In this document: positions 1,042 to 60,766 of the stretch, in pieces
How the letters are laid out: the number at the start of each line of letters is the position of its first letter
Position numbering within the stretch: position 1 is the stretch's first letter
Virus record (IMG/VR): IMGVR_UViG_3300028490_000394
Source of the DNA: an uncultured virus (IMG/VR IMGVR_UViG_3300028490_000394)
Lineage: Duplodnaviria > Heunggongvirae > Uroviricota > Caudoviricetes
Reading direction: 5' to 3' (one strand)
DNA: 64,000 nucleotides
The notes under the pieces: model-generated
The model's input: the letters and a program-made list of their open reading frames with translations, nothing else
Databases searched by the model: none
Told to the model about the DNA's origin: nothing
Program-made: the position numbers and the translations under genes

Positions 1042-1119
1042 TGGCAGGCGCCCAGGGACTCGAACCCTGATCCTTGGGATTTGGAATCCCCTGCTCTATC
1101 CAATTGGAGCTAGACACCT
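1042..1119 (-). tRNA. tRNA-Trp(CCA)
   Basis: AGGTGTCTAGCTC...GGGGATTCCAAATCCCA...TTCGAGT...GCCA. Confidence 0.92.
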
Positions 1120-1132
1120 AAAAATTTGACAT

Positions 1133-1176
1133 AAAAAAAGGGGGAACCGGGTACTTAAGACCCGATCCCCCCTTTT
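1133..1176 (-). terminator. Intrinsic terminator (putative attenuator) upstream of tRNA operon
   Basis: GC-rich hairpin GGGGGATCGGGT/ACCCGGTTCCCCC followed by T7 on minus strand. Confidence 0.75.
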
Positions 1177-1192
1177 GTACATATATTACCTT

Positions 1193-1276
1193 TTAGATAA
1201 TTTGTACTCCAGAAAAAGAGCCATAAGAATTAGTTACCACAAATGTCTGCCAAGAATTTACTTTTTTCAAAACCAT
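1193..1276 (-). CDS. Putative 27-aa leader peptide MVLKKVNSWQTFVVTNSYGSFSGVQII
   Basis: AAGGAG RBS; ends 17 nt before terminator; below ORF-track cutoff. Confidence 0.6.
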   Translation of the reverse strand: MVLKKVNSWQTFVVTNSYGSFSGVQII

Positions 1277-1387
1277 GTCTCCTTTATTTTCTGTATTTTA
1301 GAAAGTATATACCAACTAACCTTAAAGTAAGCTTAAATATACTTCCAATGTCTATTTTTTTGTTAAAATATATGAATATATCATATT

Positions 1388-2882: not shown

Positions 2883-3305
2883 TTAGCTTGATTGAACAGA
2901 ACCGTCAAGACAGCTGTCAAATGATACTGCATTTCCAGAATATGTAGCATTTGCTATTGCAACTGCATAACCAGCTGAACCGTCAGTACATGTTTGAGTA
3001 GTTACTGTAATAGTATTACCTTTAGAGAACGCTGTTCTTACACTTCCGTCTGTACATAGACCATTGTTTACTGTACCTGATTGACCAGTTGCTGCACAAG
3101 TTAAAGCTTGGTATGCTTGAGCATTTGCAAATTCAGTTTGTTGTGCAATGATTGCACCTCTAGCGTCACTCTTCATTGAGTTTACTGTTGCTACTTTTGT
3201 TGAATCATTAAGATTTGCAATTGCAAACCCAGCTAAGATTGAGATAATTGCCATTACGAATAATAGTTCTACTAGGGTAAACCCTTTTTTGATTGTTGAT
3301 TTCAT
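2883..3305 (-). CDS. Type IV pilin-like protein
   Basis: KKG|FTLVE motif; AAGGAGG RBS; two Cys pairs. Confidence 0.92.
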   Translation of the reverse strand: MKSTIKKGFTLVELLFVMAIISILAGFAIANLNDSTKVATVNSMKSDARGAIIAQQTEFANAQAYQALTCAATGQSGTVNNGLCTDGSVRTAFSKGNTITVTTQTCTDGSAGYAVAIANATYSGNAVSFDSCLDGSVQSS

Positions 3306-4094: not shown

Positions 4095-4400
4095 ATGGGT
4101 TTTATTGCATTTTTAATTACTTTACTTACAGGTATCTTTGTTTCATTACTTTTACCTAGAAAAGCTGTTTTTGCTTTAATCCTTATTGGAGCAACTCTTA
4201 TATCTATGAATCATTTGAATTTAATAGATAAAAATCTTATAGATCTTGAGGAATTCGCTATTTCTATTAATGGTGGTGTTGATAGTGATATTTATAATGA
4301 ACTTAGTAAGTTTAAGGAGGCTTTTGTTGAGATAAATAGTGCTACTGATAAGGCTATTAATCTTGAAGCTAGCGATTTTGAGAAGAATCCTCCTAAATAA
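4095..4400 (+). CDS. Membrane protein
   Basis: AGGAG RBS; N-terminal TM hairpin resembling preceding gene. Confidence 0.75.
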   Translation: MGFIAFLITLLTGIFVSLLLPRKAVFALILIGATLISMNHLNLIDKNLIDLEEFAISINGGVDSDIYNELSKFKEAFVEINSATDKAINLEASDFEKNPPK

Positions 4401-4958: not shown

Positions 4959-5285
4959 TTATAGTCCTGCTCTGAATTTTAAGTATCCATTTAATAAAGA
5001 TCTTATTTTCTCTGCTCCAACTGGATTTGCTGAATGCACATTGAATTTAAATCCCTCTGGAATTACTATCTCTCCGTCTAATTCTGAATCTACAATCCAT
5101 TTTGCAAAATCAAACCCTGACTTTCTTTCTTTACCGTCTACCATACCTAGGTCATGATCAAATGATATGAAGTCTGGCATTCCATGCTCTCTTACATATG
5201 CTTGCCCTTCCTCACATGTTCTTACTATTACTGTAAACTCTGTTTTTGGAGTTCTTATGTCGTCTATATATAAAGTTCTTTTCAT
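4959..5285 (-). CDS. Cyclic-phosphate processing receiver-like domain protein
   Basis: LYIDDIR, ISFDHDLG, GFD and VHSANP motifs. Confidence 0.8.
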   Translation of the reverse strand: MKRTLYIDDIRTPKTEFTVIVRTCEEGQAYVREHGMPDFISFDHDLGMVDGKERKSGFDFAKWIVDSELDGEIVIPEGFKFNVHSANPVGAEKIRSLLNGYLKFRAGL

Positions 5286-5385
5286 TTTAAACTCCTTCTT
5301 TTTTATTTATTATACCATATCACTCATTAAAGTATACTTGTTTTTTCTTCTTTTTTACGGTATAATCTATATAAAAAGGAATTTT

Positions 5386-5801: not shown

Positions 5802-6251
5802 ATGAAAACTAAAAATGGATTCACCCTTGTAGAATTATTATTTGTTATGGCAATTGTATCAATTATGGCTGGAGTTGCTATCGCACAAATGAATGGGTCT
5901 ACTGATAAGGCACATGAATTAGATCTTATTAATGAGGCTAGACTTATTAATACACAACTTTTGGAGCAGCTTAGTCAAAACTCTTCACACCGTTTTACTA
6001 CTAGCATAAGTACTCCTTTAACTCCGGGACCTATTATTAATACTAAGCTTAGAGAACTTCCCATATCTAGTACTGGACTTACTTTGCGTACTCCATATGA
6101 TATTGCTTATGTTATTTCCCCTCTTGGTGGTAATTGTTATAAAATTAGAGTTTTTTCAAAATATTTTTATGAACTTGAATATAAATGGGATACCTATGTT
6201 GACACTGGTAACTGTTTGTTAAACAACGAAACAGTTTTAGTCAGACCCTAA
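5802..6251 (+). CDS. Type IV pilin-like protein
   Basis: KNG|FTLVELLFVMAI. Confidence 0.88.
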   Translation: MKTKNGFTLVELLFVMAIVSIMAGVAIAQMNGSTDKAHELDLINEARLINTQLLEQLSQNSSHRFTTSISTPLTPGPIINTKLRELPISSTGLTLRTPYDIAYVISPLGGNCYKIRVFSKYFYELEYKWDTYVDTGNCLLNNETVLVRP

Positions 6252-14888: not shown

Positions 14889-15374
14889 ATGAAATTAATA
14901 AATAAAAAAGGGTTCACCCTTGTGGAGCTATTATTTGTAATGGCAATTATCTCAATCTTAGCTGGTTTTGCAATTGCAAATCTTAATGATTCAACCCTAG
15001 TTGCTGAAGAAGCTTCTAACAAATCCATGTTACGTAGTAATATACCTGTAGTCAATGGTGTTCATAATAAACTATCTGAATTGGGTTATGGTTATGGTGG
15101 TGGAGGGGATTCTTTCTCTTGTACTGGTCCTAAATACATTTCTTTACATGCTGACGCACAACTCGCTTCAAATGGGCTATGTACCTTTACTGTAGGTGGT
15201 GAAAAAATTAAAATAGCTGTAAATAAACATGGTATTCTTTATTTTGATATTAATCCTGTTGGATTTATTATTCAGACTTTACCAGGCTCTGCTGTTGGTA
15301 AGGAAGCTGTTAATTATAAGCGATTTATATATTATTCTAATCAGCATGGTGCTATTGAAGTTGTTCAGAAGTAG
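14889..15374 (+). CDS. Type IV pilin-like protein
   Basis: KKG|FTLVELLFVMAIISILAGFAIANLNDST. Confidence 0.9.
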   Translation: MKLINKKGFTLVELLFVMAIISILAGFAIANLNDSTLVAEEASNKSMLRSNIPVVNGVHNKLSELGYGYGGGGDSFSCTGPKYISLHADAQLASNGLCTFTVGGEKIKIAVNKHGILYFDINPVGFIIQTLPGSAVGKEAVNYKRFIYYSNQHGAIEVVQK

Positions 15375-18040: not shown

Positions 18041-18178
18041 CCTTACAATTTCAAATTATTATTATCCTCCAAGAATTAAGATTTAGAATCTAACGGAATT
18101 ACTTTGAGTTGTGCCTTTGGCACTTCTCAATCTATTAACTAACTTTAAGATTTATTATGTTATAATAATCTTTCATTT

Positions 18179-18250
18179 GAGTTCTTCGTCTAGCGGCCAA
18201 GGGCAACCCTATTCCAAGGGGAAACACGGGTTCAAATCCCGTAGAACTCA
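18179..18250 (+). ncRNA. tRNA-Glu-like RNA with aberrant anticodon arm
   Basis: 7-bp acceptor, GTCTAGCGG D-arm, TTCAAAT T-loop; AC arm CCCT-ATTCCA-AGGG. Confidence 0.7.
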
Positions 18251-18299
18251 ACCAATTCATTATCTGACTTTAAGGTTTGATATGGTATAATAATTTTAT

Positions 18300-18371
18300 G
18301 GTATCTTCGTCTAGTGGCCAAGGACAGACCCCGCTGGGGGGAAAACGTAGGTTCGAATCCTATAGATATCA
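18300..18371 (+). ncRNA. tRNA-Glu-like RNA with 4-nt anticodon loop
   Basis: GTCTAGTGGCCAAGGAC D-arm; CCCC-GCTG-GGGG; TTCGAAT. Confidence 0.7.
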
Positions 18372-18546
18372 ATTACATTTAATAAGTAAGGCTTTCATAA
18401 CATTGGTAGAGCCCTTGGCAATAAGCGAAATCAGAAGGTTATGTATCTGAGACGACGGTCAGGAGAACGTGAGGTTCAAAACCCACTATTTTGAGAAATG
18501 TAGAACTTTAGAGCTAAATAGTTGCAACTGTTTGGTTTTAATCTTT

Positions 18547-18686
18547 GTTGAATTAGCTCAGTTTGGAAGAGTATGTCATAAATAAGGTCACTGGTTCGAA
18601 TCCAGTATTATCCTACGGGGTACTTAGCTCAGTGGTAGAGCGTATTGCAGACAAGGTCAGAGGTTCGATTCCTTTATTTGACACCA
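18547..18686 (+). ncRNA. Double-elbow tRNA fusion RNA, copy 1
   Basis: Acceptor-D-T-(UACG-capped acceptor)-D-T-acceptor-ACCA; no anticodon loop. Confidence 0.8.
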
Positions 18687-18691
18687 TTTAA

Positions 18692-18760
18692 CGAAGTGTT
18701 GCACGAGAGAAGTGCTTGTCCTTTTTTAGGATATGGGTTAAGTCCCCATTACTTCGACCA
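18692..18760 (+). ncRNA. Minimal tRNA-like RNA, oligo-U loop, no variable loop
   Basis: CGAAGTG/TACTTCG+ACCA; three hairpins. Confidence 0.6.
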
Positions 18761-18761
18761 T

Positions 18762-18826
18762 AGAGTATCGCACGAGAGAAGTGCTTGTCCTTTTTTAGGA
18801 TACGGGTTAAATCCCCGTTACTCGTT
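18762..18826 (+). ncRNA. Tandem copy of minimal tRNA-like RNA
   Basis: GCACGAGAGAAGTGCTTGTCCTTTTTTAGGATA identical to previous unit; compensatory T-stem change. Confidence 0.55.
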
Positions 18827-18835
18827 ACAATTTAT

Positions 18836-18961
18836 GTCGACTTAGCTCAGTGGTAGAGCGCGGTGTGGTCACTGGTTCGAATCCAGTAATATCTAACGGG
18901 TATTTAGCTCAGCGGTAGAGCACGAAGAGGGTCATTGGTTCGAATCCAATAGTTGGCACCA
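18836..18961 (+). ncRNA. Double-elbow tRNA fusion RNA, copy 2
   Basis: Same order of arms as 18547..18686; ends ACCA. Confidence 0.8.
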
Positions 18962-19119
18962 TTTTAACAGCAACCTGTAAGGTTTGTTTTGTTATAATAA
19001 AACTTCAAATGGAATTGATTATTCTATTTGTAAAAATGATTAATTTTTGTAACTTTTTGATCATTGACTAAGCTTTCTGAAAGGACTGTTTAGTTATAAT
19101 ATTAAAGTTCAAAACATAT

Positions 19120-19195
19120 GTACGTTTAGCTCAGTCGGTAGAGCATATCCTATTTAAGGATAAGGCCCGTGGTTCGAATCCTCGAGGGTACACCA
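19120..19195 (+). tRNA. Atypical tRNA (nominal Lys-TTT, A at position 33)
   Basis: 76 nt; loop TATTTAA; mismatches in acceptor and T stems; exact duplicate at 19995. Confidence 0.6.
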
Positions 19196-19201
19196 ATTTA
19201 T

Positions 19202-19273
19202 GTGAATGTAGTGGAGTCTGGTAACACACTTCCTGTAAGGGAGAGATCGGAGGTTCGAATCCTTCTGTTCGCA
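19202..19273 (+). ncRNA. tRNA-like RNA with shortened anticodon loop
   Basis: CTTCC-TGTAA-GGGAG; TTCGAAT. Confidence 0.65.
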
Positions 19274-19393
19274 CAAAAAGTTTTTTACTTTTTTGTAGTA
19301 ACTAAGTATTGTTTATTTATCACTCGGGAGGCAAAGTGCCTTTTAGTTTTATTTATTTAATCTTGCAAGTTTTTACTTATGTTATTACTTTTT

Positions 19394-19463
19394 GTTAATT
19401 TAGCTGAGTTGGATTAGCTGGCCCACTATGGGTTGTACATTGGTTCGAGTCCAATAGTTAGCA
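19394..19463 (+). ncRNA. tRNA-like RNA with shortened anticodon loop
   Basis: GTTAATT/AGTTAGC acceptor; GGCCCACTATGGGTT; TTCGAGT. Confidence 0.6.
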
Positions 19464-19500
19464 CTTGCTGCAAGATCTTAATTGATCTTCAGCCACCTAT

Positions 19501-19621
19501 AGACAATTAGCTCAGTTGGTAGAGTACTTTGACTCTCAGTAGCAAGTTTTGGCCTTTAAACGCCTTAACCCTACTGATTAAGTCTTAGAGGCCAGTGGTT
19601 CAAATCCACTATTGTCTGCCA
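19501..19621 (+). ncRNA. tRNA-like RNA with ~45-nt insertion in anticodon arm
   Basis: Perfect acceptor AGACAAT/ATTGTCT+GCCA, canonical D and T arms; extended stem TCAGTAG/CTACTGA. Confidence 0.75.
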
Positions 19622-19624
19622 CTA

Positions 19625-19940
19625 ATGTTTCAATTGAGGAGATCTTGTCTCTTGAATTGGGCCATTATGGTTCCAAAACAGTTAGTGTCCAAGCGGGTAA
19701 CCTTATATCAATTGTCCTTCAGTAAAGACTTTTGTTGGTTATATGGGATTAGTGACCCAGAATACACATAATAGAGCGGTGCACACTGAATGTACAGAGG
19801 TTCTCTTACTGTTCCGAACGGGATACCAAAGTAGGAAAAATAGATATAAATGGTGACTTTTAGATTTGGGTCATTAGAAACCGTAGGTAAAACTTGTAGG
19901 TTTACATTTTTATCAAACCTGTCTGTTTCCACACAACAGG
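19625..19940 (+). ncRNA. Putative large structured ncRNA
   Basis: Follows tRNA-like RNA; long-range stems such as TAGTGACCCAGA/TTTGGGTCATTA; higher GC than spacers. Confidence 0.4.
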
Positions 19941-19994
19941 CTTTAAGGTTAGTTATGTTATAATCTTATTATGAAGACGAAAGTTCTTCTTTAT

Positions 19995-20070
19995 GTACGT
20001 TTAGCTCAGTCGGTAGAGCATATCCTATTTAAGGATAAGGCCCGTGGTTCGAATCCTCGAGGGTACACCA
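19995..20070 (+). tRNA. Exact duplicate of 19120..19195
   Basis: Identical 76 nt; own TGTTATAAT promoter. Confidence 0.6.
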
Positions 20071-20075
20071 ATTTT

Positions 20076-20190
20076 GTTTATCATTTACTTATGAGAGGCC
20101 ATTTAGCAGAGCAGTCTACACTATGACTAGCTTAGCATTATCGGCGCTAATAAAAGAATTGTAGAGGTTAGAATCCTTGGATAAGCACCA
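20076..20190 (+). ncRNA. Acceptor/T-arm RNA family (115 nt)
   Basis: GTTTATC/GATAAGC+ACCA; TTGTAGAGGTTAGAATCCTT; no D or AC arm consensus. Confidence 0.65.
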
Positions 20191-20196
20191 TACTAT

Positions 20197-20312
20197 GTTG
20201 ACTACGTTCTACTATCGCATTTGCATTATAAATTGAGTATTCCACTAGATACTTTTCTTTTGCAGGCTTTCTTACTAGAGTTGTAGAGGTTGAAATCCTT
20301 GAGTCAGCACCA
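20197..20312 (+). ncRNA. Acceptor/T-arm RNA family (116 nt)
   Basis: GTTGACT/AGTCAGC+ACCA; TTGTAGAGGTTGAAATCCTT. Confidence 0.65.
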
Positions 20313-20318
20313 TTTTAT

Positions 20319-20389
20319 GTTTTTGTAGCTCAGTCCGGCAGAGCGGGCCCTTTAGGGCTGCGTCAATGGTTCGAATCCATTCAAAATCA
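20319..20389 (+). ncRNA. tRNA-like RNA with 4-nt anticodon loop
   Basis: TAGCTCAG D-arm; GGCCC-TTTA-GGGCT; TTCGAAT. Confidence 0.7.
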
Positions 20390-20579
20390 ATTAGACTAAT
20401 ATCCTTGAAGCGCTACCTCGGTAGAAATGCACTATTCGGATAAAAACTTTTGTTTTGTCAATTATAGTTATTAGTCTTTTCTCTATGTCGAAGTAGATTA
20501 CCACGATATCCGGGTTGCTCGATCTAATCGTTCTATCGGTGAGTGTTAAGTTTTGATACTTTTTTCGTCTACCTTTTAT

Positions 20580-20729
20580 GCGGGAGTAGCTCAGTTCGGT
20601 AGAGCGCTAAGATACTTACTTTCTTTTTTATGTCCTACGAATTCTAGGGTCGCATGTAAATCTTAGTAAGAAATGGTTTGATTCCGTTTTCTTAGAGGTC
20701 ACTGGTTCAAATCCAGTCTCCAGGCTCCA
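20580..20729 (+). ncRNA. tRNA-like RNA with ~75-nt insertion in anticodon arm
   Basis: Canonical D and T arms; CTAAGA/TCTTAG stem encloses hairpins including a second T-like arm. Confidence 0.7.
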
Positions 20730-20813
20730 AATATCCCCTTTCATTCTTATAACAATTTTAACAACATTTTCATTTATTTGCTTATGTTTAAAACTTATTA
20801 AAAGGATCCACCT

Positions 20814-21200
20814 ATGTCAAAAAAAATTCTATTAACTAAATACTATTATGTTATTTCATATATAGTTTCAAAAACAATCTTCAACAAATGTAACATGAAA
20901 TATGAGGTTTTTATTTCTTGTGATCAGCCTATCTCTAAGAAAAACTTAAAGATCATTGAAGATAATATTTCTGAAATGTTTGACTATCCTAGCAAGGTTC
21001 TTCTTACTCCAGACCTATCTAAACCTGAAGTAACTCATTTGAACGACGCTACAGACTTCATGTCTGATTTTGTTGAGGTTCGTATATCAATTTCAAAATC
21101 CTCTTCTGAAGTACCTGCTGATTACTTTAATCATGCAGTAGTTATTGAAGATAAAAATTATTTTGTTCTTTGTCCTGAAGCTTTTCAAGACGAAGATTAA
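20814..21200 (+). CDS. Hypothetical protein
   Basis: AAGGA RBS. Confidence 0.7.
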   Translation: MSKKILLTKYYYVISYIVSKTIFNKCNMKYEVFISCDQPISKKNLKIIEDNISEMFDYPSKVLLTPDLSKPEVTHLNDATDFMSDFVEVRISISKSSSEVPADYFNHAVVIEDKNYFVLCPEAFQDED

Positions 21201-21310
21201 ATATACTATACCCTTTCGAGGGTAAAGTTTCTACAATTAAAACATAGAAACCATAATTTTTAAATCTCCGATATTTTATAAAACATATATATTTATTTAA
21301 GGAGATTATT

Positions 21311-21790
21311 ATGCAAAAAAATACTAAAAAAGGGTTTACCCTTGTGGAGCTGTTATTCGTAATGGCAATTATTTCTGTCCTAGGAGCCTTTGCTATTACT
21401 CAATTTAGTAATAGTAGAACTGCTGCTTTAAAAGCACAACTTATGAATTCAGCTAAAGCTAGAATTGCTTATTTATCTTCTTTCTCTTTATCACATGAGT
21501 TTAGAGTTAAATCTTCCATTCTTGACATTCAAGCGTCTCATACTAAAAATTCTGATACTACTTACTCTTGGAGAGGTATGAAAATCTTTTCTAAACAACA
21601 TGAAGTTGGAAAGATTGGTTATGTTGGTACTTATGCATTACCTGGTACGTCAATATCAAGCTGTGTCGGGTTTTATCTTACAAGTACTGAATTACCTAAC
21701 TATTTCTTATCTGGAGGTACTTGTGCTAATAGTACGGTTATTACAGAATCCAAGATTGCTCCTTCTTATCCATATGTTTTTAAATATTAA
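21311..21790 (+). CDS. Type IV pilin-like protein
   Basis: KKG|FTLVELLFVMAI. Confidence 0.9.
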   Translation: MQKNTKKGFTLVELLFVMAIISVLGAFAITQFSNSRTAALKAQLMNSAKARIAYLSSFSLSHEFRVKSSILDIQASHTKNSDTTYSWRGMKIFSKQHEVGKIGYVGTYALPGTSISSCVGFYLTSTELPNYFLSGGTCANSTVITESKIAPSYPYVFKY

Positions 21791-21856
21791 CTTTTATATC
21801 CGAATTTTAGTTTAATCTATTATATATAAATCTAATATTAAAAATAAGGAAAACAA

Positions 21857-22279
21857 ATGAAACAAACAATTAAAAAAGGGTTCACCCTTGTGGAGCTGTT
21901 ATTCGTAATGGCAATTATCTCGATCTTAGCAGGATTTGCAATAGCAAATCTTAATGACTCAACAAAAGTAGCAACATTGAATTCAATGAAAAGTGACGCA
22001 AGAAATGCAATGAGTGCAGAGCAACTTCTATTCTCTAGTACACATAGTTATCAAACTCTTTCTTGTACAGAAGGTGTCGACGATAATAATGGTTTATGTA
22101 CAAGTGGTGCACTTAAACTAAGTGTTAGTAAAGGTAATAGAGTTGTAACTGTTAAAAGAGCTTCTGGTAATAGTTATCAAGTTTATGTAACTAACCCAGT
22201 ATTCGCTAACCAAGAATTAGTATTTGATAGTAGATATAATGGTACTTTTATATTACGTGATATAGTACATTCTCTCTAA
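21857..22279 (+). CDS. Type IV pilin-like protein
   Basis: KKG|FTLVE; SMKSDARNA; CTEGVDDNNGLC. Confidence 0.92.
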   Translation: MKQTIKKGFTLVELLFVMAIISILAGFAIANLNDSTKVATLNSMKSDARNAMSAEQLLFSSTHSYQTLSCTEGVDDNNGLCTSGALKLSVSKGNRVVTVKRASGNSYQVYVTNPVFANQELVFDSRYNGTFILRDIVHSL

Positions 22280-22356
22280 ATTATCATTCCTTTATATAGA
22301 CATAAAAATTTTAAAGGAAACTTTAAGTTTTCTTTAGCTATAATCTATTTATCGAT

Positions 22357-22433
22357 ACGGGGTTAATTCAGTCTGGTAGAAAGCTTGGAATTAAATTTCT
22401 TGGCAGTCATAGGTTCAAATCCTATATCCCGTT
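22357..22433 (+). ncRNA. Degenerate tRNA-like RNA
   Basis: ACGGGGT/ATCCCGT acceptor, TTCAAAT T-loop; irregular AC arm. Confidence 0.55.
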
Positions 22434-22443
22434 CCCGATATGT

Positions 22444-22522
22444 ATGCCTTTAGCTCAGTGGTCAGAGTGCTACCAACGTAGTTGGTGGAAGTTCATTGGT
22501 TCGAATCCTTTAAGGCATGCCA
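22444..22522 (+). ncRNA. tRNA-like RNA with 8-bp AC stem and 3-nt loop
   Basis: ATGCCTT/AAGGCAT+GCCA; CTACCAAC-GTA-GTTGGTGG. Confidence 0.7.
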
Positions 22523-22527
22523 TTTAT

Positions 22528-22644
22528 GTTTACTAATTATCTTTTGAAACAGATCTTGCACCGTTCCAAGTTCCGTTATCCTACACAGTTCTAGGAAGCT
22601 CAAATTATTTATTTGTAAAGGTGAAAATCCTTAAGTAGACACCA
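22528..22644 (+). ncRNA. Acceptor/T-arm RNA family (117 nt)
   Basis: GTTTACT/AGTAGAC+ACCA; TTGTAAAGGTGAAAATCCTT. Confidence 0.65.
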
Positions 22645-22669
22645 TTTTTATTGGCAATTATCTTCTTTT

Positions 22670-22855
22670 ATAAAGTTGATAATACACCTGCAGAGTTGAG
22701 AATGCTTGAATAAACCTAAAAGTATGAAACAGTCTAGGTCCGTAGGGCTACTAGAGTATGTGAGGAAAGTGACTACGGAACAAGCGTATGCTGTATGAAA
22801 CAAAGCAGGTTGTCCTTCGCATTTCAATTGATAGTGTAATATATATCAGCTCTAG
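22670..22855 (+). ncRNA. Putative structured ncRNA
   Basis: Nested stems ACCTGC/GCAGGT, TGCTTG/CAAGCG, CCGTAG/CTACGG; GTATGAAACA twice. Confidence 0.45.
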
Positions 22856-22896
22856 TTATATACTTTTACCCCTTTAACACTTAAATAGGAGTACTT

Positions 22897-23271
22897 TTGC
22901 TCAACAAAAATCATTTAAAATCTTATCATTGGAATGTTATCGAGTTAGATACTATAGAACTCTCAACTTATGGAATTCATATATTTTCTGAGCAAATGCT
23001 TACTTTAGAACAAATATCTAATATCTATGCTCTTATTCAAGATAAAAAAATCTCTGTTCCTTTTGTTTCTTTGAAAAATAAAGATTATGTTTCTAGCTAT
23101 GGTGTTATACCTTTTTCTTCTTTAGATATTTCTAACATATTGAAAGTAAAGTATATAACTAACCCTCGAAAAATAAGAGCTTCTTTACTTAATAGCGCTT
23201 ATCGTGATCATAGAATATTTAATTTTGTTACATTTGATAAGGATCTTAACCCTTCTCTAACTTTACTTTAA
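22897..23271 (+). CDS. Hypothetical protein, paralog of 24473 and 24911
   Basis: Y-WN-I start and FN-VTFD-DL end shared. Confidence 0.7.
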   Translation: MLNKNHLKSYHWNVIELDTIELSTYGIHIFSEQMLTLEQISNIYALIQDKKISVPFVSLKNKDYVSSYGVIPFSSLDISNILKVKYITNPRKIRASLLNSAYRDHRIFNFVTFDKDLNPSLTLL

Positions 23272-23316
23272 TCCTGGAGTGGAAATTTTTGCAACCTTAG
23301 GTTGGTCTTCTTCTTT

Positions 23317-23871
23317 CTAAATAAACTTATCTCTCACATTATATTCTTTAAATAGTTCGTCAAAATATTTATATGCGTTACCTACAAAAACCAGGTCCGC
23401 TCTTTTTGTTGTGCTATCTTCTATATATGATATCGCTCTATTATAGATTTCATTCTTTGTATCATTATCTATCTCAAGTGATTTTATCCCCACTAAAATA
23501 AAATATAGCCTATATGTAGATATTTGTGCAGTTACTGCTTTTAATGTTTCTACCTCTGTCAGATCCTCTAGGTTCACATTTTCACTATATACACCTAACA
23601 TATCCTCTATCACTGTGTATTGCTCTGGATACTCTTCCTGGTACGTTCTACGGTATATCTCTGCAGGCGTTACAGTTACTGATTCTATTTTTATTTTCTT
23701 TATCTCTTTTTCTTTACTTTTTACTATTTCTAGATCTTGATTATTCTCTATAACCTTCTCTATTTTAATTTCTTTTTTTAAAAGGGACTCTTTACTTTCC
23801 TCTTCAGTTAATGAAATATATCCTAGTGTTAAAGTAACTGCGCATGCTATTGCTATTATTTTATTTGTCAT
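23317..23871 (-). CDS. Exported/membrane-anchored hypothetical protein
   Basis: N-terminal hydrophobic segment. Confidence 0.7.
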   Translation of the reverse strand: MTNKIIAIACAVTLTLGYISLTEEESKESLLKKEIKIEKVIENNQDLEIVKSKEKEIKKIKIESVTVTPAEIYRRTYQEEYPEQYTVIEDMLGVYSENVNLEDLTEVETLKAVTAQISTYRLYFILVGIKSLEIDNDTKNEIYNRAISYIEDSTTKRADLVFVGNAYKYFDELFKEYNVRDKFI

Positions 23872-23986
23872 ATTCTTTTCTTTTCTCCTATTATAATAGA
23901 AGTGAGTTAAAAGTATGCTTAAGTTAATTTACCGATATTTTTCTATTCTGTTTATATATATAAAAATATAACAAAAGGAATTACTT

Positions 23987-24409
23987 ATGAAACAATTAAA
24001 TAAAAAAGGGTTCACCCTTGTCGAACTATTATTCGTAATGGCAATAATATCAATCTTAGCAGGTTTTGCAATCGCAAATCTTAATGATAGTACTCGGGTA
24101 GCAACTGTTACCTCTATGAAGAGTGACGTTAAAAATGCTATTACTCAGATAGAACAAGAATATGCTGCCACCGGTGTTTATAGCGATCATTCTACAACTG
24201 ATATTTGTGTTCAAGGTACTTCTGATACTAATGGTATGTGTACTTTTGGTACAAAGAAAATTCCTATTTCAAAAGGAAATAAAATGTATATCAATTATGT
24301 TCAGTTTGTAGGACAGCCTCCAGGGTATACTGTTCTTTTAAGAAATAGTACGTATTCAGACCAGGTCAGATTTATTAAACACGTTGACGGTGCTATTTAT
24401 ACATTCTAA
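23987..24409 (+). CDS. Type IV pilin-like protein
   Basis: KKG|FTLVE; SMKSD; C..G..DTNGMC. Confidence 0.92.
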   Translation: MKQLNKKGFTLVELLFVMAIISILAGFAIANLNDSTRVATVTSMKSDVKNAITQIEQEYAATGVYSDHSTTDICVQGTSDTNGMCTFGTKKIPISKGNKMYINYVQFVGQPPGYTVLLRNSTYSDQVRFIKHVDGAIYTF

Positions 24410-24472
24410 TATCGTCTTATAACAAACCCACTACTATTTTTAAATAGTAAATTTTCTACAACGGAGTCTATT

Positions 24473-24901
24473 ATGACTATTCAACCTGAACTTATATACT
24501 TTTGGAATGCTATTCGCTTCCATAGTATTGGACCACACGGATACAAGTATTACAAGCTTAATATCCTTACTCAAGAACACTGTTCTCCTACTCAACTGCA
24601 AACACTTGCAGATTCTATCATTGCTGGTAAGCAAGACGTCCCTAATGTTATGTTACTAGACGTTAATGACTCAAGTGCTATCTATCATGGACCTCAACTC
24701 TATACTGTTTTAGATCAAACTAAAACTTTTATAGATTCTGGTGTGACTGAAATTCTTGGATCTTTACTGCATGAACTTTACGTAGAATGTACTTATCCGG
24801 ATTCTTATCCTGGTACACGTCTGCCTCTTAAAAAGCAAACTTTCAATGAAGCTATCTTCAGTAAAGAACTTGACAGATTTGTCATTCAACCAATTAATTA
24901 A
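24473..24901 (+). CDS. Hypothetical protein (paralog family)
   Basis: Aligns with 24911..25336 (NILT, LAD-II-GK, QTFN). Confidence 0.75.
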   Translation: MTIQPELIYFWNAIRFHSIGPHGYKYYKLNILTQEHCSPTQLQTLADSIIAGKQDVPNVMLLDVNDSSAIYHGPQLYTVLDQTKTFIDSGVTEILGSLLHELYVECTYPDSYPGTRLPLKKQTFNEAIFSKELDRFVIQPIN

Positions 24902-24910
24902 GGATATATT

Positions 24911-25336
24911 ATGTTTAAACCGTATTACTGGAATAGTATTTCAATTACTATTTCTAGACCACGCACGCGCTGCAAAGCTATTCATGTTAAGATTAATATC
25001 TTAACTGAAACACATATTACTCAGAATAGACTTCTTCAGCTAGCTGATATGATTATTCAAGGTAAAGAACGTCCTGAAAATGTCCTTAGTATTAAAAAAT
25101 TCACTAAGAATGATATTCATTCTATTTTTGAAGGTAATTTTAATGATAAAATTTATGAGTTTAAAGAGATTAAGACTAAAACCAGTGTAACTACTGGCAT
25201 TCTTACTTTTGACCGTGATTTATTAGAAGGTACTTACAATTACGATAATATGCCTGATCATATTCAGCGCCAAACATTTAACGTTGCTACTTTCGACGAA
25301 GATCTTGATCGTTATACATTTACTCAAGAAGATTAA
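24911..25336 (+). CDS. Hypothetical protein (paralog family)
   Basis: As above. Confidence 0.75.
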   Translation: MFKPYYWNSISITISRPRTRCKAIHVKINILTETHITQNRLLQLADMIIQGKERPENVLSIKKFTKNDIHSIFEGNFNDKIYEFKEIKTKTSVTTGILTFDRDLLEGTYNYDNMPDHIQRQTFNVATFDEDLDRYTFTQED

Positions 25337-25370
25337 GTTCTTCTCTAGACCCTTTCCAGGGCCCTAGATA

Positions 25371-25679
25371 CTAATAATCGTAACTTGCTCCATTATCTTC
25401 ATTATCTATAACGTCCATAATATTGAATGCTCCATAGTTCTTTCCAAATAGTTTTTCTACTACAGCTATCTCTTCTTGATTAGTTGATATTACTTCATAA
25501 TCACTCTTATCAATTGTTCCCATAAGATCTGAATGCTTTCCTGCTATCTCACCCGGGTTAATTTCTCTTTCTTCTTCAGCTGCTACTTCTAATCTTTTAA
25601 ACTCTTCTTCTGTTAAAACTGCAGTTACTTTTCCAAATGCAAATGGGATTCTAAAATCCAATCTTACTAAATACTTCAT
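25371..25679 (-). CDS. Phage-type hypothetical protein
   Basis: GEIxGKHS motif; tandem paralog of 25681..25971. Confidence 0.78.
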   Translation of the reverse strand: MKYLVRLDFRIPFAFGKVTAVLTEEEFKRLEVAAEEEREINPGEIAGKHSDLMGTIDKSDYEVISTNQEEIAVVEKLFGKNYGAFNIMDVIDNEDNGASYDY

Positions 25680-25680
25680 T

Positions 25681-25971
25681 TTACTTTCCTTCTATCGCGT
25701 CCATAATATTGAACGCCCCATAATTTTTACCTAGTAGTTTTCTGACTACTTCAATTTCAGCTGTATCTGTTGAAAGTATTTTAAAATCAGCTAGCTCAAT
25801 TGGGCCTGCTACGTTGGAATGCTTCCCTTCTATTTCACCAAGACATATTTGTTGTTTATTTGTTGCAGCTTCTCTTAATTTTTGATACTCTTCTTCTGTT
25901 AGAATTGAGAGTGCTTTTCCAAATGCGTCTCTTAATCCAAAATCTACTTCTACTAAATATGTCTTTGCCAT
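25681..25971 (-). CDS. Phage-type hypothetical protein
   Basis: GEIEGKHS; GKNYGAFNIMD shared with neighbour. Confidence 0.78.
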   Translation of the reverse strand: MAKTYLVEVDFGLRDAFGKALSILTEEEYQKLREAATNKQQICLGEIEGKHSNVAGPIELADFKILSTDTAEIEVVRKLLGKNYGAFNIMDAIEGK

Positions 25972-26050
25972 ACTTTTTCCTTTATTTTATATATTATAGT
26001 ATACCTATATACTACTTTATATATCCTTAAAGGTAGAACCCAAGTGGGTT

Positions 26051-26386
26051 CTAGAACTGTTCGTTCGCTTTTTCTTTTTGTTTGATTTTTAGTTCTACAG
26101 TTAACTCTTTTAACATTTTACAGGCAACGTCTTCTGAGATTCCTTCAAACATTCGATCTTCTTCTCTTAATCCTGATATTCTAATAACTGGTAGGTCATA
26201 TAGATATATAAAAATCTGCTTACCACCCATTACTGAAATTTTTAATGGTCCAGAGATATAATCTCCCATAGAAAAAAATCTTTTGAAAACACCGTTATTA
26301 AAGGCATTCATAGCCACTCCTGAAAATACAGATACTAATCTTTCAAATTCTACTGTTGTTGTTACTGGTTGTTCATTTTTGTTCAT
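26051..26386 (-). CDS. Hypothetical protein
   Basis: GAAAGG RBS. Confidence 0.7.
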   Translation of the reverse strand: MNKNEQPVTTTVEFERLVSVFSGVAMNAFNNGVFKRFFSMGDYISGPLKISVMGGKQIFIYLYDLPVIRISGLREEDRMFEGISEDVACKMLKELTVELKIKQKEKANEQF

Positions 26387-26492
26387 AATTGAACCTTTCT
26401 AATAAGTTTTAAACATAAAAAATATATGTTGTTAATATTGTTATAGTAGAGTTTAGACTAATATAGTATTGGTAGATAGGAAAAGTTCCTAT

Positions 26493-26816
26493 CTAGAATG
26501 AAATATCTATCCTTGAGTCTTTCCACCCAATTAAGAATAGAATAGACGCGATAGAAAAAGCTGTTATGCATGTATACAATAAGAACTCTAGTTCTTTTCC
26601 ATTTATAGTTGCTGATTCTATAAATAGAATTCCAACTACAATACTGAATAACATTAATATTGCACCTAGCAACATATTTTCTATTGAATTTGTAATCGTT
26701 TCTGATACTAATACAAATGTCATTGCTATTAAAAGCCCTACTAATAGAACCTTTAAGCTTACTACTGATAATAACATTACTGCTATTATTAACATTGTTA
26801 ATCTTTTTTTACTCAT
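26493..26816 (-). CDS. Membrane protein
   Basis: Three hydrophobic segments; AAGGA RBS. Confidence 0.7.
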   Translation of the reverse strand: MSKKRLTMLIIAVMLLSVVSLKVLLVGLLIAMTFVLVSETITNSIENMLLGAILMLFSIVVGILFIESATINGKELEFLLYTCITAFSIASILFLIGWKDSRIDISF

Positions 26817-26985
26817 TTTTTTTCCTTTAAAATAGTGTTAACACTGTTATATGAACTAAATTTCTACAAATTTATACTTTTTTTCTATTTTTAATTGAAC
26901 TTTAAGCATAACTCGTATATAATACTAACATACAAAGAGGGAACACACCTTCTTTAGAGTGCAAGTCTCTATGTTCTTTTAAAAT

Positions 26986-27062
26986 GGGTCATTAACTCAG
27001 TTGGTTAGAGTGCTCCGCTCATAACGGAGTTGTCGCTGGTTCGAGTCCAGCATGACCCACCA
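26986..27062 (+). tRNA. tRNA(CAT): elongator Met or Ile2
   Basis: Perfect cloverleaf; CTCCG-CTCATAA-CGGAG; G1:C72; ACCA. Confidence 0.92.
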
Positions 27063-27070
27063 CATTTTAT

Positions 27071-27133
27071 GTTCTCGATTGGGTCAGCTGCCATGAATTT
27101 GGCTTGCCATGGGTTCAACTCCCATAGAGTACA
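27071..27133 (+). ncRNA. Truncated tRNA-like element
   Basis: T arm ATGGG-TTCAACT-CCCAT; weak acceptor; reduced D arm. Confidence 0.35.
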
Positions 27134-27461
27134 CTAGTGTTTTTAACTTTTCACAGAAAAGCTAAAAGATATTAAAAATAAGTCTATGATAAGACTGTGA
27201 TCTTATTTGTGTTGCATAAAAAGTGTGCGGCTTATGGTATCTTTGTTAACATTTCTATTTTGTCCAGTCTTCTAAACATTTTAATCTTGACTTTTTTACA
27301 GAGAAGTTAGAAGTATCAATGAGTCTGTAAACTTGTTGCGGTTGCATATGGGGTTTTACCGCGTGTGCGATTCGTAAGAGAATATCTTCGAAAGTTTATT
27401 ATGGAAGCGTATAGTAAAGTACTGTATCTAGGAGTTAAATCTCTTAGTGGGCACCCTTTAT

Positions 27462-27560
27462 GATAAGTAGCGGATCTATTAGCCGGTTGAGGCGAAATAG
27501 ACATACATTCCATAACTTCATTTGTTATGGCTATAGGTGAGAATCCTATCCTTGTCACCA
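27462..27560 (+). ncRNA. tRNA-like RNA with enlarged D-arm region
   Basis: GATAAG/CTTGTC+ACCA; T arm ATAGG-TGAGAAT-CCTAT; stems TCTATT/AATAGA and CCATAAC/GTTATGG. Confidence 0.6.
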
Positions 27561-27567
27561 ATATTGT

Positions 27568-27645
27568 CGCGGAGTAGAGCAGTTCGGTCAGCTCGCTGGG
27601 TTCATAATCCAGAGGTCATTGGTTCAAATCCAATCTCCGCAACCA
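27568..27645 (+). tRNA. tRNA-fMet(CAT)
   Basis: CGCGGAGTAGAGCAG; CTGGG-TTCATAA-TCCAG; ACCA. Confidence 0.9.
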
Positions 27646-27810
27646 AACTTTAAGGTTATATTCGCTATAATCTATTTAGAAGCTTTCATAATGTGTACAG
27701 ATTGTATGTATTCTGAAGACTTTAAATTTATATAATCCCTAGAAAGGTAATGAGACCTGAGTTTCAGGTTAATGGCTCGCTTGTCATTTTATATTCTTTT
27801 ATTTCTTTTT

Positions 27811-27882
27811 AAATAACGATCAAACGGATCGGCTCAACCCATTTATTGAGCAAGCTAAGGGAAAATCCCATAGCAGTTATTT
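27811..27882 (+). ncRNA. Four-way-junction RNA motif, copy 1
   Basis: AATAAC/GTTATT closing; GATC/GATC, GCTCAA/TTGAGC, GGGA/TCCC hairpins. Confidence 0.5.
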
Positions 27883-27901
27883 AAATTGTGTCTTTACACT
27901 T

Positions 27902-27973
27902 GGTTGTGTAGTTTAGTTGGTTAGAGTGCTCCATTATGGAGAGATAGAGGTTCGAATCCTTTTGCAATCGCCA
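27902..27973 (+). ncRNA. tRNA-like RNA with 3-nt anticodon loop
   Basis: CTCCA-TTA-TGGAG; TTCGAAT; GCCA. Confidence 0.72.
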
Positions 27974-27981
27974 AAATTTAT

Positions 27982-28054
27982 GATTGTGTAGCTTAATTGG
28001 TCAGAATGCTCCCCCGAGGGAGTGACGGAGGTTCGAACCCTTCTGCAACCGCCA
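27982..28054 (+). ncRNA. tRNA-like RNA with 4-nt anticodon loop
   Basis: CTCCC-CCGA-GGGAG; TTCGAAC; GCCA; paralog of previous. Confidence 0.72.
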
Positions 28055-28101
28055 GAAATTTTCATAATGTATATATATTGTATATATTATGAAGGTTTCT
28101 T

Positions 28102-28184
28102 TTTTATAATGAAAGATCATTCGGATCGGTTCAACTTTACTGTTGGGCTACGTAAGGGAGCAACGCCTTAATATATTATGAAAA
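28102..28184 (+). ncRNA. Four-way-junction RNA motif, copy 2
   Basis: GATC-N3-CGGATCGGYTCAAC...TTGRGC...TAAGGGA shared with copy 1. Confidence 0.5.
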
Positions 28185-28262
28185 TTTAGCCTTCTGTAAT
28201 CCTTGTTTGAATGCTTCGATTACACAGATAACACTCTTGTTTGAATGTTATCTGTACTATAT

Positions 28263-28339
28263 GCCTTTATAGCTCAGTTGGTAGAGCAGGGGATTCTAAA
28301 TCCCTTTGTCGCGAGTTCGAGTCTCGTTAAAGTGCACCA
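28263..28339 (+). tRNA. Amber suppressor tRNA(CTA), Phe-like body
   Basis: GGGGA-TTCTAAA-TCCCT (CTA at 28296-28298); canonical D/T arms; bulge in acceptor; ACCA. Confidence 0.82.
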
Positions 28340-60695: not shown

Positions 60696-60766
60696 TTATA
60701 ATCCTTTTTTATTTATTATATCAAATATAACCTTTAAGCCTACTTGAGTTTATTTAGAGAGAACCC

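Follow-up and report, generated by a model that had tools for sequence, protein, structure and literature searches.

A putative leader-peptide attenuator before a tRNA array in a very large phage-like element and similar modules in other large phages

We analyzed a 64,000-nucleotide (nt) stretch of DNA (hereafter, the window) from an uncultured virus of the Caudoviricetes, IMG/VR record IMGVR_UViG_3300028490_000394. On its minus strand, a promoter is followed by a short open reading frame (ORF), a hairpin that encloses the stop codon of this ORF, an intrinsic terminator and an array of six transfer RNA (tRNA) genes (Table 1). The terminator stem (1176-1136) has 17 pairs, nine of which are G-C, with a loop of 7, and is followed by seven T; it is the most stable among the 15 hairpin-plus-T-run candidates of the whole window. 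It sits 20 nt past the stop codon of the leader ORF, and tRNA-Trp begins 13 nt past the T run. Folding of the leader region gave a z score of -4.0, with 0 of 200 shuffles folding equally well, and the leader peptide had no match to a Pfam or PHROG family. An earlier note on this DNA had listed a ribosome-binding site, a 27-codon ORF with one Trp and five Val codons, the terminator and the order of the tRNA genes; each of these parts was found where it had been placed.

Table 1. Features of the leader cassette and the tRNA array on the minus strand of the window
Feature	Position	Strand	Description
Promoter, element's own recurrent type	1326-1304	-	Nine-base box 1326-1318, eight-base spacer, -10 hexamer 1309-1304
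Shine-Dalgarno-like hexamer of leader ORF	1284-1279	-	Direct reading; 2 nt to ATG, 8 nt to in-frame TTG
Leader ORF	1276-1193 (ATG, 27 codons) or 1270-1193 (TTG, 25 codons)	-	Stop codon 1195-1193
Leader Trp codon	1252-1250	-	
Leader Val codons	1261-1259, 1240-1238, 1237-1235, 1207-1205; also 1273-1271 given ATG start	-	
Predicted antiterminator 5' strand	1222-1211	-	Last third of leader ORF, 16-26 nt before stop
Small hairpin enclosing leader stop codon, abutting terminator	1207-1177	-	In all predicted folds
Intrinsic terminator	1176-1133	-	G+C-rich stem 1172-1160/1152-1140, A-U extension to 1176-1136, T run 1139-1133
tRNA-Trp, anticodon CCA	1119-1042	-	ARAGORN; Rfam tRNA 48.3 bits
tRNA-Val, anticodon TAC	968-892	-	ARAGORN, Rfam
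Four tRNA genes, anticodon CAT	878-802, 784-707, 696-620, 610-532	-	ARAGORN cloverleaves; Rfam tRNA scores for three of the four

The exact start of the leader ORF deserves comment. Among the 71 ORFs of at least 120 codons in the window, 47 have a recognizable Shine-Dalgarno core, which is spaced 4-10 nt from the start codon in 45 cases and 2 nt in none, whereas the leader ATG stands at a spacing of 2 nt, compared to 8 nt for the in-frame TTG at 1270. In addition, this TTG aligns with the ATG of a leader in a related contig (module A of locus L002, see below), and the next three residues are identical. Given the short distance from the hexamer to the ATG and the alignment of the TTG, we take the ORF to be 25 to 27 codons long, perhaps 25 with four Val codons. 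Thus, the ribosome-binding site and the 27-codon ORF reported earlier are present, but an ATG start at such spacing is atypical and a 25-codon frame from TTG is possible.

The leader promoter differs by one mismatch from a motif that recurs in the element. This motif was matched 34 times in the window at up to three mismatches, compared to 16.2 ± 3.8 matches expected, and none of 100 shuffles reached 34. A weight matrix built from 12 sites, with the leader's own site left out, placed the leader promoter 20th of all positions on both strands, and the promoter of L002 module A resembles it, second upstream box included. No promoter was detected between the terminator and the array by a generic sigma-70 scan, and the element-specific matrix, applied to positions 1400-500 of the minus strand, revealed nothing beyond the leader promoter. 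Its next best candidate (1005-977, in the gap between tRNA-Trp and tRNA-Val) had a score of -5.1 and rank 329, lacked the last base of the -10 hexamer and was rejected. A separate promoter after the terminator, which the earlier note had named as evidence that would refute its reading, was therefore detected by neither scan. Since no recognizable promoter lies between the terminator and the tRNA genes, transcription of the array must, as far as sequence tells, pass the terminator.

The recurrent motif consists of a six-to-nine-base box, a spacer of 8-11 bases and a -10 hexamer that is often immediately preceded by TG, and it occurs about twofold more often than in shuffles. Its box is nearer to the -10 hexamer than a normal -35 element. 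Copies are found, for example, at 18144-18166, 18269-18291, 18976-18998, 19942-19964 and 27649-27671 on the plus strand and at 60715-60737 on the minus strand. Several copies end approximately 11 nt before tRNA 5' ends, and others precede protein genes.

We consider it probable, with considerable reservation, that segment 1326-1133 is a leader-peptide transcription attenuator that provides feedback control of the phage tRNA supply. By standard wobble rules, anticodons of the array read 5 of the 24 codons that follow the TTG (one Trp and four Val), where 5.6% is expected (binomial p 0.0095); with the ATG start, 5 of 26 leader codons are read (p 0.013). Standard wobble allows anticodon TAC to read two kinds of Val codon, and all four Val codons in the TTG frame are of these kinds. 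When the same leader was set against the L002 array, 3 of 24 codons were read (p 0.49). Folding of the nascent transcript predicted pairing of 1222-1211 with the 5' arm of the terminator (1172-1159), and with a ribosome modeled at the Trp codon, 11 of the 13 arm nucleotides paired with 1221-1211.

A transcript started at the leader promoter would carry, in this order, the leader ORF, the stop-codon hairpin, the terminator and the six-tRNA array. A ribosome that quickly reached the stop codon would cover or separate 1222-1211 and the stop-codon hairpin, the terminator would fold and little tRNA would be produced. If, on the other hand, usable tRNA were short and the ribosome were held at the Trp or early Val codons, 1222-1211 would be free for the emerging 5' arm, and once these two strands had paired, polymerase would read on into the tRNA genes. 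We infer that the speed of translation at Trp and Val codons decides between terminator and antiterminator. Because the products of the array are themselves what the leader needs, such a circuit would exert negative feedback on decoding capacity and would hold usable tRNA-Trp and tRNA-Val at a set point. Defense-mediated cleavage of host tRNAs, suggested in the earlier note, is a possible trigger; codon demand of this A+T-rich element or host shut-off would serve equally, and the design is accounted for just as well by simple feedback on the overall amount of usable tRNA.

The four tRNA genes with anticodon CAT would have a different place in this circuit. A mismatched 1:72 pair is a mark of bacterial initiator tRNA, and this pair is mismatched in all four (C/A in three and A/C in one); in addition, three G-C pairs in succession form the foot of the anticodon stem in two of them. 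These features imply initiator-like tRNAs rather than elongator tRNA-Met. It had been proposed earlier that function of initiator tRNA is also sensed, but this part of the proposal is not supported, as the leader lacks a Met codon beyond its start and elongation does not employ initiator tRNA. As initiator tRNA reads no internal codons and the leader has no codon that could sense it, these four genes appear to be co-regulated cargo. Differences among their anticodon loops are found at the two positions on the 3' side of the anticodon. It is uncommon to see four diverged initiator-type tRNAs in succession, and this arrangement could be a result of escape from a nuclease that targets the anticodon loop.

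Similar modules were found outside the window. Loci L001 and L002 belong to a 48,428-bp metagenome contig, Ga0256824_10000034, which was reached through a 65%-identical relative of the pilin-like protein encoded next to the cassette. L002 contains two modules, A and B, each composed of a promoter, an ORF served by a ribosome-binding site (28 or 25 codons), a hairpin and a strong terminator; the hairpins that precede the terminators of both modules are analogous to the window hairpin at 1207-1177. In module B, the tRNA array starts 23 nt further on and encodes tRNAs for Gln, Pro, His, Ser, Pro, Pro, Gln, Tyr, Pro, Pro and Tyr. The 24 codons after the start of its leader include five for Tyr, four for Gln, three for Pro, two for His and two for Ser, such that 12 of 24 codons are read by anticodons of its own array (p 1e-6) and 14 of 24 are Tyr, His, Gln or Pro codons (p 3e-8). 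The module A leader has the same eight-residue His/Tyr/Gln/Pro run, with 7 of 27 codons read (p 0.016), and its promoter layout and first four residues are common with the window leader when the latter is read from TTG. The match is reciprocal: against the window array, only 1 of 24 codons of the module B leader and 0 of 27 of the module A leader are read. Moreover, the three strongest terminators of the window, L001 and L002 combined are exactly the three located behind such small ORFs, and two of these stand immediately before tRNA arrays.

Several other features of this contig were observed. Approximately 300 nt separate the module A terminator from the module B promoter (L002 3590-3900), with no ORF, tRNA or Rfam match in this interval; module A either gates something unrecognized or acts in tandem with module B on one array. 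A 156-residue ORF with an HNH-type Cys/His motif (L002 4364-4834) lies between the first tRNA-Gln and the remaining array, and a tRNA-like repeat of about 100 nt, not called by ARAGORN, is present twice, at 4240-4330 and 5250-5340. In L001 (6555-6800), the pilin-like gene that comes after the orthologue of the pilin-like neighbor has an early in-frame stop within the conserved N-terminus and the tRNA cassette is absent there; a long ORF from 6848 onward looks like an inserted mobile-element gene.

We further examined two records of huge uncultured phages, LR756501.1 and LR745206.1, which were picked solely for the best tRNA similarity to the window (66 and 61 tRNA matches, respectively). Modules were sought by composition-blind rules: a tRNA preceded by a gap of 60 nt or more, a terminator at most 160 nt upstream of this tRNA, and the longest ATG-started ORF ending no more than 100 nt before the hairpin. 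These rules identified a module at 6 of 56 heads of tRNA blocks, and inspection of 11 heads by eye added four, whose terminators the rules had missed, giving at least 10 modules in the two records together. Among the inspected heads, six had no convincing module (L030 3730 and 5890, L036 2458, and L040 2840, 5287 and 6226), and one (L032 2710) was left uncounted as doubtful, since its Lys-rich ORF had 9 codons and its hairpin was not followed by a T run. In one 38-codon leader, 78% of residues come from the seven amino acids of its 18-tRNA block; a 16-codon Gln-rich leader precedes three tRNA-Gln genes, and a Ser/Arg-rich leader precedes Arg and Ser tRNAs.

The correspondence between leaders and the blocks that follow them was well above chance. 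For the eight modules obtained by the composition-blind rules, the own-block match was 0.35, compared to 0.158 for permuted blocks, and 4 of 100,000 permutations were as good; for all 12 modules, the values were 0.41 and 0.168, with 0 of 100,000 permutations as good. The own-block match reaches 0.78 in the family. With L002 module A added to these 12, an intrinsic terminator was located 20-44 nt past the leader stop codon in 13 of 13 modules, and in nascent-transcript folds its 5' arm paired with the leader above the mean of 120 dinucleotide shuffles, again in all 13 (Fisher combined p 7e-5), five of which were individually at p 0.05 or below. In nine modules, the window among them, the predicted partner falls in the final 35 nt of the ORF, past most of the matched codons; of the other four modules, one has its partner across the stop codon and three have it spread out. 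By analogy, this predicted position of the partner strand is the geometry of classical attenuation. The window cassette has the order of parts and the predicted partner position in common with modules of LR745206.1, LR756501.1 and Ga0256824_10000034, and its stop-to-terminator spacing is similar to theirs.

Two modules of LR745206.1 share all 16 bases immediately upstream of the leader start, and a third has almost the same 16 (L032 1865-1880, L034 1688-1703 and L033 1685-1700); several leaders also begin with similar residues, which suggests that a promoter and start cassette may have been duplicated before each tRNA block. The 12 bases from the start of the T run in the window (1139-1128, minus strand) are identical in an LR745206.1 module (L031 6298-6309), perhaps by chance, and differ at one position in L002 module B (4128-4139).

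Several observations weigh against attenuation at the window locus itself. The window is the weakest member in the own-block test: its leader has a match of 0.21, most other leaders being far above this value, and its own block ranks 4 of 8 and 6 of 12 among all blocks. The Trp and Val codon signal noted earlier is modest in the window taken alone. Few codons match, and they are dispersed along the leader: there are one Trp and four Val codons, with only two adjacent. The leader ATG is too near its ribosome-binding hexamer, and four of the six array tRNAs, the initiator-like ones, have no sensing codon in the leader. Pairing of the arm is also unremarkable: by duplex energy, 87% of random window segments pair with it at least as well, and its probability of pairing upstream is 0.63, versus 0.65 ± 0.18 for random segments (62% of which equal the window by this measure) and 0.53 ± 0.20 for shuffles; against dinucleotide shuffles, the arm-leader pairing has p 0.14. 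An antiterminator had been proposed earlier in a register that overlaps 1222-1211 but differs from it; such pairing is predicted, but in the window it is not above chance. When the ribosome was modeled at the adjacent Val codons, the antiterminator was lost or its pairs spanned the ribosome, and at equilibrium the terminator always formed. No orthologue of the window leader was found. In addition, the 13 modules are not fully independent, since modules of the same phage may be paralogues. Judged on the window alone, attenuation would perhaps have to be called doubtful. What raises it is the family: the order of parts claimed in the earlier note recurs in L002 and in two public phages, although codon and pairing signals of the window itself are modest.

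Among other explanations, the most serious, albeit unlikely in our view, is that a plain terminator follows an unrelated small ORF, ending both this moron-like unit and the upstream pilin-like gene, and that the tRNAs are produced by constitutive leakage or with the help of a late phage factor that overrides the terminator, translation of the leader having no role. A phage moron is a stand-alone promoter-gene-terminator insert, and the cassette likewise combines a promoter, a small ORF and a factor-independent terminator in a compact unit between genes, which is complete in itself. The weakness of both the codon match and the antiterminator in the window fits this explanation, as do the window's remaining tRNA clusters (plus strand, 18178-28336), which are driven by promoters about 11 nt before the tRNA without any leader; thus, the element does not need leaders to express tRNAs. 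However, a moron would not be expected to end 13 nt before a promoter-less tRNA array or to have its ORF spelled in amino acids of that array. A plain terminator leaves unexplained why small ORFs with ribosome-binding sites stand before the three strongest terminators, two of them right before tRNA arrays, why these ORFs are written in amino acids of the block that follows, and why terminator arms pair with ORF ends. That the leader peptide matches no protein family also speaks against it.

It is less probable still that the cassette is a relic or re-assorted attenuator, whose array was reshuffled until only Trp and Val remained represented and four initiator-like genes were added, and which now acts mainly as a fixed damper or as a general sensor of whether translation runs. 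The low rank of the window in the own-block test would be expected in this case, and its leader matches blocks of other phages equally well or better, up to 0.42. In L001, moreover, the cassette is missing behind the orthologue of the pilin-like gene that lies upstream of it in the window, which shows that such cassettes move or are lost. On the other hand, it is precisely codons for the first two tRNAs past the terminator that are enriched in the leader, Val codons fit the wobble of anticodon TAC, and the partner-strand geometry fits the family. A T-box-like switch, in which RNA binds tRNA directly and the ORF is not translated, appears very improbable. T-box leaders also join a terminator/antiterminator decision to the read-out of a specific tRNA, as proposed here, but they recognize uncharged tRNA with no translation involved and regulate synthetase or amino-acid genes, whereas in these modules an open frame served by a ribosome-binding site is the conserved feature. 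A tRNA-binding RNA would need no runs of matched codons in such a frame, as seen in L002 and the public phages. No Rfam family was detected in the leader at threshold (the best non-tRNA match had 19.8 bits versus a gathering score of 58.7), and the Rfam T-box model gave no match either at gathering score or, on positions 1000-1400, at E values up to 10.

Attenuation through a translated leader has well-known precedents. Leader-peptide attenuators govern the amino-acid operons trp, his, leu, thr, ilv and pheA, and also pheST. The window cassette resembles them in its short and presumably translated leader with some codons for the regulated commodity, in the terminator before the regulated genes, and in the predicted alternative pairing between 5' arm and leader, set by the position of the ribosome relative to the stop codon. 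Unlike these systems, it would gate phage tRNA genes instead of enzymes or synthetases, and the loop would be direct, as the product tRNA itself is needed to decode the leader. It also differs from known attenuators in that regulatory codons are few and scattered and no Rfam leader family is matched.

The window looks like a comparatively weak member of a recurrent, apparently unpublished class. Whether large phages indeed possess a class of attenuators whose leader peptides are spelled in codons of the tRNA block they gate, the window cassette sensing Trp and Val decoding and, on its failure (for example, once a host nuclease has cut tRNAs), also releasing four initiator-type variants with altered anticodon loops, we regard as evenly balanced. 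A full-text literature search returned no description of leader-peptide control of phage tRNA genes, although papers beyond the searched library may exist, and a term search of the main text of PMC7162821, a 2020 Nature paper on huge phages, gave 0 occurrences of words for attenuation, leader or terminator. Why and when phages use the tRNA genes they carry is an old open question. If our reading is correct, phage tRNA supply would be controlled by demand rather than constitutive, and terminator read-through would report when host tRNAs run short in the course of infection, be it through codon mismatch, host shut-off or tRNA-cleaving defense. Each tRNA block would then be a self-adjusting sensor of decoding capacity for exactly its codons, ribosome-mediated attenuation would extend from amino-acid metabolism to tRNA genes, and the modules would offer compact natural sensors for the decoding of chosen codons.

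Further relatives of the cassette were sought in other collections. In IMG/VR, exact stretches of the terminator, tRNA-Trp and tRNA-Val gave 0 matches, and no confirmed relative of the pilin-like neighbor was found. A pattern for the shared double promoter box identified 26 loci, none of which had a tRNA. When a degenerate form of the Tyr/His/Gln/Pro run of L002 was used as the pattern, the single match was rejected as a chance occurrence inside a coding region with no tRNA. In the public phage collection, matches to the window were confined to its tRNA parts and no match to the L002 modules was found, and the sole return of a scan of genome contigs was an N-terminal prepilin-motif match in a Clostridia metagenome-assembled genome.

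The window lies within a 431,381-bp contig of a very large phage-like element; the window itself has a G+C content of 28-38% and uses the standard stop codons. Its 17-24 tRNA genes are accompanied by genes for a potassium channel, a peptidase, a receiver-like domain and numerous small prepilin-type proteins, and mostly by genes for unknown proteins. The closest named relatives of the pilin-like proteins are from Sulfuricurvum and Poseidonibacter, which hints at a possible host among Campylobacterota. At least six small proteins have a prepilin-type N-terminal methylation motif and near-identical N-termini (1388-1831, 2372-2809 and 2883-3305 on the minus strand; 5802-6251, 14889-15374 and 21311-21790 on the plus strand), and more paralogues are present on the 431-kb contig.

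Other tRNA genes of the window also have unusual features. Two have the anticodon CTA, of the amber-suppressor type (19394-19464 and 28262-28335, plus strand); despite their presence, 17 of 52 long ORFs end with TAG and 2 of 52 with TGA. Several more short or partial tRNA-like matches occur at 18624-18958. Finally, Rfam tRNA matches of 118 nt (19501-19618) and 146 nt (20580-20725), both on the plus strand, suggest inserts or introns.

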